The notes: generated from the letters alone by a model not told the origin. 64,000 bases of DNA from a virus (IMGVR_UViG_3300032304_000721:1-64000); one strand, 5' to 3'; shown: positions 14,436 to 23,172, numbered from the stretch's first letter. Translations and numbers: made by a program.

Positions 14436-15463
14436 TTCAGTTCCTTTATTTGTAGTTGTGCGTAGTCTGCATCTCGCCAATGATACGGGTATTCTGCTCG
14501 GTGCAGACTGGTACGTACAGCAGTCACATTTAATCTAGTATTTAATAGCGCCCAAATCCGTCTATAATCTTCTGTGCCAAATGTGCGAATCAAGTCAACT
14601 TGTGCTATTTGAGGGTGTCCTATAGTAAGGCTTTTGTCGTCTGGGTCAAATCCGTTCGCAGTCAACCAAGTTCTAAACTCTGCTAACTGTCGTCGTTGCC
14701 ACTCGTATGCTCCGGGATTGTTGGCCCACTCTATGTCAAAGTCTGCACAGGCCAAGGTCTGCGTGGCCAAACTAGTTGTGGTCAGTTCACCTATTCTGCT
14801 GTCACGTCCTTCATCGCAGAACACTTCCCAATGATGTTTGCCCACTGCTTTGTTAACACCCACATACACACCACCCAGACTTCTATTAATAGTGTCTATG
14901 CCAAACAGCTTATAATCTTCTGTGTCCAACTCAAACCTTGGCGCATTTAACCAGCACATGAGTTGGCTGGGACGCATCCATTCTGGAGCAGTTTCCAGCT
15001 TGCGTTTGCTCAGTTGCCATGATTCAAACTCATGACACAAGAGATTCAACTGACGTATGTGCCAGCGTGTGTACGGGTCAGCAGCTGTATAGTAAGGGCT
15101 AGGTGCGTGTGCAGTGCCCTGTAGATCTTCAAAGTATCTGTGCAACAGGTTAAATTCTGCATGGTCAACACCACCGGCTGCTGTGACACTGCGTTGCATG
15201 GTAAAGGTATGATCTATTCGGTAGTCTATTGCACTGGCATTGACGGCAGCTATGCTGGAGTTGATGGCAGCTATCAAGTAGTCACCTGTGCGTGGACCTT
15301 CGGCCCAGCCCAACCAGCAGTAGTTCTTTTCCAAGTGTAGACCCTGCTCTATTACACCATTTAAAGCGGTCAACCATTTTCTACTAAGACTGTTGTCCAC
15401 CACATCAATGTACACAGTCAAGTCTGTCAAGTCTAGTTCTACAGTATCAAGCAATGCCATCAT
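14432..15463 (-). CDS. Hypothetical protein in modification cluster
   Basis: 343-aa ORF, translationally coupled; no motif I recognise. Confidence 0.8.
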   Translation of the reverse strand: MMALLDTVELDLTDLTVYIDVVDNSLSRKWLTALNGVIEQGLHLEKNYCWLGWAEGPRTGDYLIAAINSSIAAVNASAIDYRIDHTFTMQRSVTAAGGVDHAEFNLLHRYFEDLQGTAHAPSPYYTAADPYTRWHIRQLNLLCHEFESWQLSKRKLETAPEWMRPSQLMCWLNAPRFELDTEDYKLFGIDTINRSLGGVYVGVNKAVGKHHWEVFCDEGRDSRIGELTTTSLATQTLACADFDIEWANNPGAYEWQRRQLAEFRTWLTANGFDPDDKSLTIGHPQIAQVDLIRTFGTEDYRRIWALLNTRLNVTAVRTSLHRAEYPYHWRDADYAQLQIKELK

Positions 15464-16733
15464 ACCATGCTCCTATTTCAGGGTCTTCGTGCAGTATATC
15501 TGCCAGTGTGTACGTGTCGCCACGTATGCGTTCCAGTTGTTGTATTCTTCGTTTGCCCATTGCTAGCTGCGCTGCGGCTTCGCCGTGGTTCCATTGTTCA
15601 CTAAAGGTGGGCCTGCGTTTTAGCTGTTGTAACACGTCGTGTAGTGCGCCTGCGGGTAAGTCGGCTGTTAAACGATCCACTGTACGGTCCAGCAGGTCAC
15701 GCGGCAGTGCCAATGGGCTTAAGATAATATCTGGGCTAAAACTGAATATGACTTTGGCCAGGATGTCCACATCAAATTCATCAGCTAACTGTTGTATGTT
15801 TTGGACTTCAAATAAACCGGGCAGTGTGAGTGTAAAGTCTATACGCATTTGTCTACGGTTCCGTGCGTATTGTAGGCCTTGTTCAAAGTTTGCCCGCCAT
15901 GACTCATAGTTCAACCCTGTGCGTATATACTCTCCCACACGTCCTGTGCCATCCAGACTGGCGCATATTTGCCAGTCACGTACATGTGCCAAGATATCTG
16001 TGTACAGGTTCACACCCCGATAGTTGACCCTGCTAAGGTTGGTGTTGTAACGTGCATACACACGTGGACCGTCTCCCAGGGCCACTATGCGTTGCATGTA
16101 GCGCCAGTGTTGTTCGTACATGAGCGGTTCGCCACCTACCCAGTACACTTCTTCTACTCTATGCTGTTCTACAGCGTCACCGAACTCCTGCTCGATTTGT
16201 GTGTCTTGGAATGCTGTTATCGATTCACGTACAGCAGGTTGCATCCATGAATTCTTAGGGTTGGTCCAGTCAATCATGGCATGTGTACGCTGTTCCGTTT
16301 CCCAGCTACTGCTCAACATATCCCCACATGTACGACATTTAAAGTTGCACAAGTTTGAGAAGCGGTAGTCCCAGCTTACAGGTAGGGCAGTTGTCGATCC
16401 TGCGTCGTCTGTGGCAGCCAATACTGCGTCACGCAAGTGCCCAAACATTCTGTTAAAGTAACTACGATACACGTCTGTATTCAGTAACTGTTCGTTGCAT
16501 ACAGCACATTCTGGCAGGGTTTCGTTGGCCATCATACGGCGTCTAACACTGCGCATGTGATCACTGTTCCAATGCTGTTCTAATGTTTGGGGCCGGTACT
16601 CACCTGTGCCTGCAGCAGTGTCTATGTACTGCTCAAAGCTCTGTGCAGGTTCTCTTGATGCACAGCACATACGCCGTTCAGTTTGTGGGCTAACGTATGT
16701 GTGTACCCAAGGTGCTAGACACAGCTTATCCAT
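15447..16733 (-). CDS. Radical SAM protein with N-terminal SPASM/twitch-like Cys domain
   Basis: CLAPWVH...MCC...CAVC; CNFKCRTC; YWVGGEPL; YNTN; ASLDG. Confidence 0.92.
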   Translation of the reverse strand: MDKLCLAPWVHTYVSPQTERRMCCASREPAQSFEQYIDTAAGTGEYRPQTLEQHWNSDHMRSVRRRMMANETLPECAVCNEQLLNTDVYRSYFNRMFGHLRDAVLAATDDAGSTTALPVSWDYRFSNLCNFKCRTCGDMLSSSWETEQRTHAMIDWTNPKNSWMQPAVRESITAFQDTQIEQEFGDAVEQHRVEEVYWVGGEPLMYEQHWRYMQRIVALGDGPRVYARYNTNLSRVNYRGVNLYTDILAHVRDWQICASLDGTGRVGEYIRTGLNYESWRANFEQGLQYARNRRQMRIDFTLTLPGLFEVQNIQQLADEFDVDILAKVIFSFSPDIILSPLALPRDLLDRTVDRLTADLPAGALHDVLQQLKRRPTFSEQWNHGEAAAQLAMGKRRIQQLERIRGDTYTLADILHEDPEIGAWYDGIA

Positions 16734-21782: not shown

Positions 21783-23172
21783 ATTCTTTCCACCAAGCAG
21801 TCATTTCAGGAAAAGTTTTAAAAAAATCAGTGCCGCGTCTGCGATCGTGTTCTGCGAAGAAACGGTAAAAGTCTGCTTTATTTTTTTGAATATACTCTAC
21901 ATTTAATTTCTGCCCATCACGCATCCAGGCAATGTCTCGATCTAATCTGGCCAGTTCATAGTCTTTGAATCCTTGGAATCTTGTTTGTTCTGTTTCAATT
22001 TGTCTGATCATCCAAGCCCATAGTTGTTCAAGTTGGTCCACATAGCTTTCTGGCAGTAGTTGTAGGCTTTGCCAGGTAGGTGTGCGTAGCACAGGAGTAT
22101 CAAACCATACACGTTGATAGGTTTTGCTGTATAACTTTCTAAGTCCAAGTATGCCAGCAAACAAATGCGGAAGACCTGTTACACTTAGATTATTCATGGT
22201 CACAATGAATGTTATACTGTTACGGCCAGGAATCTCTGTTAAAAATTGGTTAACACGATCCCATAGCAAATCAAAATCAAGCCCGTGTCTGATGTATTCT
22301 GCTTGGTCACCAAAGCTATCTAAACTAACATACTGCATAAAGTGTTCAATCTTCTCGCCTTCGCATAATTCTTTTACATAGGCTTTATACTTTTGCCAGC
22401 TTTTTTCATCTACGCTAAAGTTGCTGGTTACATTCAAATGCAAGTCGGGTTTGGGATTGGCCAACACATAGTCAAAAACACGATAGGTATTCTTGTCCAA
22501 CATGGGCTCACCACCAGTCATACGAAAGTGTTCTAGTTCTGGATACAAGGTAGGCCACCACTGCCAAAAAGCATCTACATAAGGATTGTGTTCTCTTACT
22601 GGTATAGGACAATTACGCCCAGTGAAGTGGCTAGGATCATTGTGGATAGTTGAAGTAGGATATCCACCATGGGTGTTAACTTCCTGTTGCCAGGTGCTCG
22701 AAAACTGCGGACTGCAATAGCTACATGCAAGATTACAAGCATGATTAAAATTAACTTCAACGTAACTTGGAACGACATCTTCATCTCCGTTTGAATTTAC
22801 AATAATGCCAAAGTCTTTGGCGGCCCAAGGCTCTCCACTACGGTAGTGTCTATCTGATAACTTGTTGTTATCTTCCATGGCCCAGCAATAGCCGCACTCC
22901 GTAGGACGTTCTTGTTTCAGCATGATTTTACGTTGCTCTTTTTTGTGCGGAGTGTTGTGTAGCGCACTAGGATTGTCTTTTAAAAGGTCTGCATCTATAG
23001 CGTGCAATGGCGGATGGTAGCAGGAGTTGTTGAGTCCTGTGGGCAGGTGTAGACTAACCTGTTTCCATTTGGCCAGGCACAGTGCAAAACCCAGATTGTC
23101 CTTCATTTCTTCTGCACTACTTAAGAATTTAGATTTAAAATTTGTAGTGACTTGGTCGCCTTTGTTTACCAC
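21757..23172 (-). CDS. Radical SAM protein (subfamily B)
   Basis: CLAKWK...SCYHPP...CGYCW; CNLACSYC; RMTGGEPM; VTSN; VSLDS. Confidence 0.92.
   Translation of the reverse strand: MVNKGDQVTTNFKSKFLSSAEEMKDNLGFALCLAKWKQVSLHLPTGLNNSCYHPPLHAIDADLLKDNPSALHNTPHKKEQRKIMLKQERPTECGYCWAMEDNNKLSDRHYRSGEPWAAKDFGIIVNSNGDEDVVPSYVEVNFNHACNLACSYCSPQFSSTWQQEVNTHGGYPTSTIHNDPSHFTGRNCPIPVREHNPYVDAFWQWWPTLYPELEHFRMTGGEPMLDKNTYRVFDYVLANPKPDLHLNVTSNFSVDEKSWQKYKAYVKELCEGEKIEHFMQYVSLDSFGDQAEYIRHGLDFDLLWDRVNQFLTEIPGRNSITFIVTMNNLSVTGLPHLFAGILGLRKLYSKTYQRVWFDTPVLRTPTWQSLQLLPESYVDQLEQLWAWMIRQIETEQTRFQGFKDYELARLDRDIAWMRDGQKLNVEYIQKNKADFYRFFAEHDRRRGTDFFKTFPEMTAWWKECEYHARQS

Follow-up and report, generated by a model that had tools for sequence, protein, structure and literature searches.

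Most radical S-adenosylmethionine (SAM) enzymes with a SPASM or twitch domain modify proteins or peptides. The SPASM signature reportedly reads Cx9-15Gx4C followed by further cysteines, with seven cysteines in SPASM domains and fewer in twitch domains. Phage virion glycosylation cassettes, for example those of mycobacteriophages, place sugar-modifying genes beside structural genes; to our knowledge, no described cassette contains radical SAM enzymes, and none contains 5-10 of them. In this study, we analysed viral DNA of 64,000 nucleotides (IMGVR_UViG_3300032304_000721, positions 1-64000; hereafter the window), in which an array of five minus-strand open reading frames (ORFs) at positions 15447-23172 encodes radical SAM proteins of 408-471 amino acids (aa), designated rS1 to rS5. 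As in the glycosylation cassettes, sugar-modifying genes stand next to structural genes here.

BtrN, the 2-deoxy-scyllo-inosamine dehydrogenase of the butirosin pathway, has an auxiliary [4Fe-4S] cluster held by four cysteines, to which the role of accepting electrons in a two-electron oxidation is assigned; the three-cysteine auxiliary cluster of MoaA, by contrast, binds the substrate (PMC9012708). The array proteins resemble BtrN in their single four-cysteine auxiliary site, as predicted here; the substrate of BtrN is sugar-like, and its pathway includes aminotransferases. They differ from BtrN in that its twitch domain is C-terminal and theirs is N-terminal, and BtrN was absent among the structural matches listed. 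The cytosylglucuronate decarboxylase BlsE and the SPASM/twitch maturases SkfB, CteB, SuiB, and anSME also carry their auxiliary domains after the core, several of them with two auxiliary clusters, whereas those of the array proteins come before it. Since they lack the C-terminal placement of the auxiliary domain, the array proteins are not canonical SPASM/twitch proteins of the BtrN, anSME, PqqE, or MoaA type; they probably work like twitch enzymes.

The domain order and invariant cysteine pattern of the window proteins are those of the NCBIfam model NF033640 (N_Twi_rSAM, 'twitch domain-containing radical SAM protein'), which they match end to end. NF033640 is a catalogue entry, to which the clade of the window adds a setting in which each jumbo-phage genome holds 5-10 old paralogs within a fixed cassette, and a deep split between subfamilies A and B. 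We give a probability of about 0.5 to the reading that these enzymes use radical chemistry to tailor, step by step, a sugar or glycan built or decorated by the products of neighbouring genes. Compared with the publications that our searches retrieved, what is new is the size and constant arrangement of the expansion within a single clade of jumbo phages, the fusions with a partner gene and with glycosyltransferases (GTs), the core shared with a cultured phage, and the terminator-promoter boundary of the cassette.

Twitch-first proteins of the NF033640 family

The array consists of rS1 (15447..16733, 428 aa), rS2 (16726..17952, 408 aa), rS3 (17949..19307, 452 aa), rS4 (19304..20641, 445 aa), and rS5 (21757..23172, 471 aa), all on the minus strand. 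Neighbours in this part of the cassette overlap each other by 4-26 nt, and the sole gene inside the array that does not encode a radical SAM protein is u20634 (20634-21782), located between rS4 and rS5. A sixth gene, rS6 (63056..64369, plus strand, 437 aa), lies on the same contig ca. 40 kb from the array and runs past the end of the window at 64000. Against the curated cut-off of 170 bits for NF033640, a model of 398 positions, all six proteins scored 224.4-398.5 bits (rS1, 278.6; rS2, 335.1; rS3, 398.5, the best fit to the model; rS4, 302.0; rS5, 305.6; rS6, 224.4), and rS1 to rS5 covered model positions 1-4 to 386-398. NCBI names the homologue HVA65872.1 as NF033640 does. Since the six proteins exceed this cut-off, their 'permuted' layout is already catalogued, and the permuted family proposed in a first-pass annotation of the window is not an unrecognised one. 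The same annotation had located five CxxxCxxC enzymes within 7.7 kb and a further subfamily-A copy at 63056; all five ORFs and the motifs quoted for them were recovered, and the further copy is real and extends to 64369.

CxxxCxxC was found in each of rS1 to rS5, with a Cys-rich domain upstream of it. The residues invariant in the alignment of the six paralogs were C5, C23, C76, C79, C129/C133/C136, and G200-G201-E202 (rS1 numbering). The ORFs at 15447, 16726, 17949, and 63056 (subfamily A) share CxxPW...CC, in which CGC replaces CC in rS6, and those at 19304 and 21757 (subfamily B) share CxAKW...SCxHPP...NPSAxHNT...CxYCW. Pfam SPASM (PF13186) was detected at the N-termini of rS1 (residues 5-80), rS2 (residues 9-78), and rS3 (residues 40-103), with E values of 1.7e-5 to 5e-12 (5e-12 for rS3), and gave no match at the N-termini of the subfamily-B proteins rS4 and rS5. 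The invariant N-terminal cysteines and these matches in rS1 to rS3 agree with the earlier description of a Cys-rich domain preceding the radical SAM core. The Pfam core model PF04055 was above the gathering score in rS2 and rS3 and weaker in rS1 (residues 124-276) and rS4, and rS5 had no match to it at E<=0.01; the CxxxCxxC loop, the GGE motif, and the alignment of the core to radical SAM structures place the proteins in the radical SAM superfamily.

Four N-terminal cysteines, CxxxCxxC, and GGE were invariant across 56 and 70 diverse family members. The same two alignments contained further invariant polar residues (R88, R115, S166, N244, S270, and R282 in rS3 numbering) and no conserved cysteine C-terminal to the core. 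The first two cysteines are spaced as Cx12-13Gx4C in rS2 to rS6, rS1 being without the Gly, and the third and fourth form CxxC. This pattern of Cx12-13Gx4C...CxxC, with four cysteines in total, is twitch-like rather than SPASM, and a site for a single auxiliary cluster is predicted. More speculatively, the three invariant arginines would fit an anionic, nucleotide- or phosphate-linked substrate. As judged from these alignments and profile scores, the six genes are strong hidden Markov model matches, intact and conserved, and not chance motifs.

AlphaFold2 models were obtained for rS3 (predicted local distance difference test, pLDDT, 92.7; predicted template modelling score, pTM, 0.90) and rS5 (pLDDT 94.4, pTM 0.92). 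In both models, the first cysteine precedes a β-hairpin, the second follows it, and CxxC opens a helix, after which the alternating strand-helix core begins. The N-terminal domain is thus modelled with the arrangement of a twitch domain, and the structure prediction that the first-pass annotation had called for places the four cysteines as in a twitch domain in both proteins. The best matches of the rS3 model were BlsE (Z score, 12.6), CteB (12.3), SkfB (11.8), anSME (11.5), MoaA (11.5), and viperin (11.4), and those of the rS5 model were SkfB (13.9), BlsE (13.2), SuiB (12.7), and anSME (12.4). These matches were limited to the radical SAM core (ca. residues 133-423), covering ca. 220-230 residues at 12-16% identity, and Foldseek and VIA-align returned generic core matches only, no listed match being clear of the rest. 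Since the Z scores are tied with those of MoaA, viperin, and PFL-AE, the structure matches point to no particular function; the modelled fold identifies both proteins as radical SAM enzymes close to the SPASM/twitch group and indicates no substrate.

The paralogs are 17-31% identical overall; rS1 to rS3 and rS6 share 18-26% identity among themselves, and rS4 and rS5 share 31%. In a tree of 92 family members, rS4 and rS5 fell into one clade of 29 members with a support of 99, while rS1, rS2, and rS6 were placed on separate deep branches and rS3 was nested among bacterial sequences. The support for the rS4/rS5 clade argues that the split between A and B is real. The proposal of two subfamilies therefore holds for B, which is a clade, but not for 'A', which consists of several deep branches and forms no tight group. 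The orthologues in 28 related contigs were 66-82% (rS1) and 63-81% (rS2) identical to the window proteins, and by these comparisons the copies are old paralogs, each with an orthologue series of its own.

The family spans many bacterial phyla as well as phages. A profile of the six paralogs matched 6,420 clusters (at 50% identity) at E<=1e-30 and 12,921 at E<=1e-10, rS3 had 4135 metagenome homologues at E<=1e-10, and one peptide pattern alone, taken from a 19-sequence subset, retrieved 296 relatives from GTDB species genomes of many phyla. The first-pass annotation had named membership in an already characterised family of known function as the outcome that would count against it; NF033640 is named, and neither a characterised member nor a paper or structure for it was found in full-text literature and PDB sequence searches. 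Literature searches on N-terminal twitch/SPASM domains, NF033640, and radical SAM proteins in jumbo or huge phages returned nothing on the N_Twi_rSAM family. Among PDB sequences, no useful relatives of rS3 and rS5 were found, the one marginal match being GDGT-MAS (E 0.05). Since the family is very large and no characterised member was found, assigning a reaction to a single member would allow thousands of genes to be annotated. By its permuted layout, the family also offers a natural test of what twitch domains do, relay electrons or bind the substrate, and of whether their position in the chain matters.

The cassette and its boundary in a jumbo-phage clade

The window makes up the initial 64 kb of a viral contig of 74 kb, for which CheckV gives a completeness of 21%. 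The baseplate-wedge protein of the contig is 32-35% identical to those of jumbo myoviruses of 350-490 kb (GAP32, CBB, and Atu_ph07), and by sequence comparison the source is a jumbo myovirus of ca. 340 kb. The array belongs to a cassette on the minus strand that starts just past a tail-fibre gene and runs in a fixed order from 26206 down to 12317. The order of tail fibres, u25904, u25152, u24401, u24070, u23166, rS5, u20634, rS4, rS3, rS2, rS1, u14432, and the carbamoyltransferase gene was syntenic in the 28 related viral contigs, at 50-92% amino-acid identity, some of these contigs having extra radical SAM or u20634-like copies. Comparison of these contigs showed the cassette to be held in a fixed order and under purifying selection.

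Each of five complete or near-complete relatives (317-344 kb, two of them with terminal repeats) had 7-10 family members above the cut-off, in addition to weaker radical SAM matches. In a complete relative, the extra copies were scattered and had no paralogs of the cassette partner genes beside them. Large multi-copy sets are, across the genomes compared, a trait of this jumbo-phage clade. The idea that the family has been expanded in phages is consequently borne out by the 7-10 copies per complete genome in this clade, but the family is not phage-specific, as seen from its GTDB relatives.

The same cassette order was seen, at 40-72% identity, in four contigs of metagenome-assembled genomes (L030-L033) labelled Porticoccaceae, Legionellales, and Haliscomenobacter. 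These are probably fragments of the phage clade binned with bacteria, and their labels may either reflect noise in the binning or point to the host. Arrays of 4-8 consecutive family genes were also present on contigs assigned to Bdellovibrionota or an unclassified bacterium (L057, from the Bacteriovoracaceae UBA6144, and L038, L034, and L042); A- and B-type copies are mixed in the L057 array. These arrays may belong to prophages, to phages binned with bacteria, or to bacterial gene clusters.

Megablast of the array DNA against GenBank phages gave no match, and protein searches against GenBank phages gave matches only in RsoM2USA and the Vibrio phages K566 and K567. In RsoM2USA, a cultured Ralstonia jumbo phage, a core of the cassette is located just downstream of the gene for the tail sheath and a confirmed virion protein, and comprises an SDR-like (short-chain dehydrogenase/reductase) gp358, a u25152-like gp353, a u24401-like gp352, a u23166-like gp350, a B-type radical SAM protein gp349, and a u23166-like gp348, all annotated as hypothetical. 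rS5 is 33% identical to gp349, and u23166 is 37% identical to the homologue directly upstream of gp349. Four family genes are clustered in Vibrio phage K566. The homologues gp349 to gp353 make the question of function testable in a cultured phage-host pair.

The position of the cassette bears on whether the enzymes act in DNA hypermodification, putting a sugar or carbamoyl group on bases. Radical SAM enzymes are reported to take part in some phage DNA hypermodification pathways, and a ThyX gene (4033-4710, plus strand) is located 8 kb upstream. However, the cassette gave no match to a dNMP (deoxynucleoside monophosphate) hydroxymethylase, DNA glycosyltransferase, or nucleotide kinase family, and in both phage lineages it is situated in the tail/fibre region and not in a nucleotide-metabolism region; we therefore regard such a role as very improbable.

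The sole real intergenic gap of the cassette (26207-26278) separates the tail-fibre gene from the first cassette gene and contains, on the minus strand, a GC-rich terminator hairpin, AAAGGGTC-TTAG-GACCCTTT, followed by a T-run and then by TATAAT. The TATAAT box is ca. 20 nt past the hairpin and 6-8 nt before the first ATG of the cassette (6 nt in the window), and reads TGnTATAAT in several relatives. Both hairpin and TATAAT are conserved in nine relatives, and three of the eight stem pairs show compensatory changes. Since the hairpin is conserved with compensatory pairs and is accompanied by TATAAT, the cassette is probably its own transcription unit and not the tail end of the fibre operon. 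The separate transcript is possibly leaderless. The promoter reading is a consensus match only.

This boundary is also relevant to the view that the product remodels the host envelope, such as lipopolysaccharide, capsule, or another surface glycan, for instance as a superinfection block or release aid, and leaves the phage undecorated. With its own sigma-70-like -10 box after the terminator, the cassette could be read by the host polymerase independently of the late structural genes, and its sugar-tailoring gene set would suit such a task. On the other hand, screening of window ORFs turned up no gene for a flippase, a polymerase, a lipid-carrier transferase, or any other part of envelope assembly, the linkage to tail genes is conserved, and the promoter, as noted, is read from its consensus. 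Envelope remodelling thus appears quite improbable.

Sugar-type neighbours, fusions and candidate substrates

Four genes with identified products place sugar and small-molecule chemistry near the array. An NDP-sugar (nucleoside diphosphate sugar) 4,6-dehydratase/epimerase-like SDR is encoded at 4962-5939 on the plus strand (Pfam Epimerase, 4.9e-45; GDP_Man_Dehyd, 1e-33; NCBIfam dTDP-glucose 4,6-dehydratase, 7e-38, below the equivalog cut-off), and a DegT/PseC-type sugar aminotransferase follows at 5824-6978 on the same strand (Pfam DegT_DnrJ_EryC1, 8e-55; NCBIfam PseC, 7e-37, below the equivalog cut-off). The plus-strand gene at 11282..12316 encodes an amidinotransferase-superfamily protein, identified by PDB sequence matches to L-arginine:glycine amidinotransferase (AGAT, 5e-15), the inosamine-phosphate amidinotransferase StrB1 (6e-11), HsvA, and SxtG; it is 75-93% identical in relatives, and its catalytic-Cys region reads GGISCCTQD. 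On the minus strand, 12862..14337 encodes an O-carbamoyltransferase of the NodU/CmcH type (Pfam Carbam_trans_N and Carbam_trans_C), whose nearest solved relatives are NovN (3e-50), GdmN (6e-44), and TobZ (9e-34). The amidinotransferase and carbamoyltransferase genes lie close to each other, and together with the DegT gene the set is reminiscent of aminoglycoside pathways.

Such a set could instead serve to make a free aminoglycoside-like amino sugar or cyclitol that bears amidino and carbamoyl groups, undergoes oxidation or epimerisation by BtrN-like radical enzymes, and is released during infection. The enzymes present mirror aminoglycoside and antibiotic pathways in the DegT/StrS-type aminotransferase, the amidinotransferase matching StrB1 and SxtG, the carbamoyltransferase matching NovN and TobZ, and the twitch-type radical SAM proteins with a BtrN-like four-cysteine auxiliary site; these enzyme matches, however, are at the superfamily level only, and bacterial surface glycans also carry amidino and carbamoyl groups. 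Furthermore, the window ORFs screened included neither a cyclitol synthase nor a resistance gene or exporter, and the cassette stays beside tail/fibre genes in two distant phage lineages. A released product of this kind is improbable in our estimation.

For the tailoring of a sugar or glycan, the following mechanism is proposed. Each enzyme would bind two [4Fe-4S] clusters, of which the core cluster would cleave SAM to give a 5'-deoxyadenosyl radical that abstracts a hydrogen atom from an unactivated carbon, while the N-terminal cluster, fully ligated by cysteines, would act as an electron relay as in BtrN. Since a four-cysteine auxiliary cluster is read as an electron acceptor in BtrN and a three-cysteine one binds the substrate in MoaA, editing of the dehydrogenation or epimerisation type is favoured; that is, two-electron oxidation or epimerisation-type chemistry would be expected rather than substrate binding to an open iron site. 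The substrate would most likely be a sugar or growing glycan made and decorated by the SDR, DegT, amidinotransferase, and O-carbamoyltransferase proteins and several unannotated, possibly transferase-like proteins, and the paralogs may each carry out one step, in sequence. Physical contact is probable for some of them, namely u23166-rS5, rS5-rS4, rS3-rS2, and rS2-rS1.

Numerous fusion proteins among the family representatives repeat the gene order of the window. Tandem radical SAM fusions were found for rS3-rS2 (P0121, P0124, and P0127; P0121 on one contig), rS2-rS1 (P0126, on one contig), and rS5-rS4 (P0122, full length in four assemblies), and a u23166-like domain is joined to an rS5-like enzyme in P0205 (hhalign probability 98.1, E 6e-14; one contig). 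An rS4-like enzyme carries a C-terminal GT2 domain in P0164 (one contig), and an rS5-like enzyme carries an N-terminal GT2/GT7C domain in P0256 (three assemblies). Since GT2 fusions, a partner-gene fusion, and tandem fusions in window order all occur, a glycan role and the physical coupling of the enzymes gain indirect support.

Fusions of another kind hint at protein substrates. Bacterial proteins of the rS3-like type are joined to TPR or Sel1 repeats, and a subtilase (S8) domain is attached to one B-type protein; TPR proteins also occur among the bacterial neighbours. The radical SAM proteins might accordingly act on protein or peptide, for example by cross-linking, epimerisation, or oxidation of residues in the tail-fibre or virion proteins encoded nearby. 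The cassette follows tail-fibre genes, that of RsoM2USA is inside the tail module, and SkfB, CteB, SuiB, and anSME are among the top structural neighbours. Yet a terminator lies between the cassette and the fibre gene, the surrounding genes encode tailoring enzymes for sugars and small molecules, and two independent GT2 fusions occur in subfamily B. As for features of maturases for ribosomally synthesised and post-translationally modified peptides, no RRE family or other leader-binding domain was detected with Pfam and NCBIfam and the sole precursor-like small gene is a 33-aa ORF without a family match; since the genes are packed with overlaps of 4-26 nt, there is no room for precursor genes, though a protein substrate may be encoded elsewhere. 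Based on these observations, protein or peptide modification is considered somewhat unlikely, but a serious alternative.

Several observations weigh against the sugar or glycan reading. The window ORFs screened included no sugar-activating nucleotidyltransferase, and, as described above, the searches for a characterised NF033640 member returned none. The peptide-modifying enzymes SkfB, CteB, SuiB, and anSME match the models at the same Z scores as the sugar enzyme BlsE; some of the fusion proteins are on one contig only, and the TPR, Sel1, and subtilase fusions hint at protein substrates. Among the 128 neighbours of 37 bacterial homologues, other radical SAM/SPASM proteins (11), PhyH (6), GT2 (4), and TPR (4) were counted with no strong conserved partner, and neither a consistent sugar-gene neighbourhood nor the phage partner genes were found near these 37 homologues. 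Seven conserved cassette genes had no Pfam, PHROG, NCBIfam, or PDB-profile match and none was shown to be a glycosyltransferase, the GT10-like (u20634) and DxD-like (u23166 and u25152) readings described below being motif-level leads only.

The presence of 5-10 radical SAM genes together with amidino- and carbamoyltransferases beside tail fibres implies an elaborate product, perhaps a glycan of the virion or host or else a small molecule, that could bear on adsorption, host range, or competition. In its strongest form, which we put forward tentatively and regard as unlikely, the proposal would be that twitch-first radical SAM proteins are a new functional class of glycan/sugar editors with dedicated transferase-like partners, such as u23166 for rS5, and that 5-10 of these editors build an undescribed amino-sugar product bearing amidino and carbamoyl groups, either on tail fibres or as a free aminoglycoside-like compound.

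Conserved partner genes and other features of the window

The gene most conserved among the partners is u23166 (23166..24083, minus strand, 305 aa), which overlaps the start of rS5, contains an invariant D64-G65-D66-N67, and has a mean column identity of 77% over 12 orthologues; no Pfam or PDB match was obtained by single-sequence or profile searches. A relation of u23166 to the GT2 domain of P0256 was also considered, and hhalign found none. The 677-aa protein encoded at 6935..8968 (minus strand) has a u23166-like C-terminal part (residues 448-637; BLASTP 26% identity, E 1e-9) lacking the DGD motif, and also matches both u23166-like genes of RsoM2USA.

The product of u20634 (20634..21782, minus strand, 382 aa) was kept in 26 of the 28 related contigs and duplicated in some. 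It has the conserved stretch FSLVTET...RTEKIWKP, which we take to resemble the motif of GT10 fucosyltransferases, and the Atlas named clusters gave Glyco_transf_10 at only 0.79. PF00852 was not detected in the contig even at E<=10, no Pfam match was found in 10 orthologues, and PDB sequence and profile searches gave no match; a GT10-like glycosyltransferase is possible for u20634, as a lead only.

Four further minus-strand genes, u24070 (24070-24426), u24401 (24401-25171), u25152 (25152-25907), and u25904 (25904-26206), are syntenic in the related contigs and had no family match. The homologues of u24401 and u25152 in the RsoM2USA cassette are both 29% identical; u25152 contains an invariant D81-x-D83 in LVLDADYVV and had no PDB match. 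Downstream of rS1, u14432 (14432..15463, minus strand, 343 aa) was present in 28 contigs at 36-78% identity and had no family match in Pfam, NCBIfam, and PHROGs. The 33-aa basic ORF mentioned above (14334..14435, minus strand; MNWIKNLYNRIRLEMRYRKKLKELRKRDPFIYK) exactly fills the space that separates u14432 from the carbamoyltransferase gene; it had no Pfam match, and an SxtK-like reading of it was not confirmed. For 11 unannotated cassette genes, 102 orthologues were scanned against Pfam without a significant match. Readings of 12317-12862 as a 2-oxoglutarate oxygenase and of 8972-11289 as a GT-B protein had no family support in Pfam, PHROGs, and NCBIfam scans.

Elsewhere in the window, a DUF2201 metallopeptidase/VWA protein is encoded at 1046-2338 (plus strand; PHROG label HNH endonuclease) and a ThiF-family adenylyltransferase-like protein at 59612-60358 (plus strand). 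The plus-strand gene at 62101..63066 encodes a canonical radical SAM protein of 321 aa with Pfam Radical_SAM at residues 10-147 and a C-terminal SPASM/twitch domain (SPASM, residues 243-317), which had only weak matches to SPASM maturase models in the NCBIfam scan. This gene is coupled translationally to rS6, and both are located downstream of an SbcC/gp46-like gene (60345-62108); since it adjoins rS6, the two domain orders are found side by side. On the minus strand, a single ORF of 4,940 aa (29364-44186) is situated between fibre-like genes and the baseplate wedge gene (44186-47620), and presumably encodes a giant fibre or structural protein.

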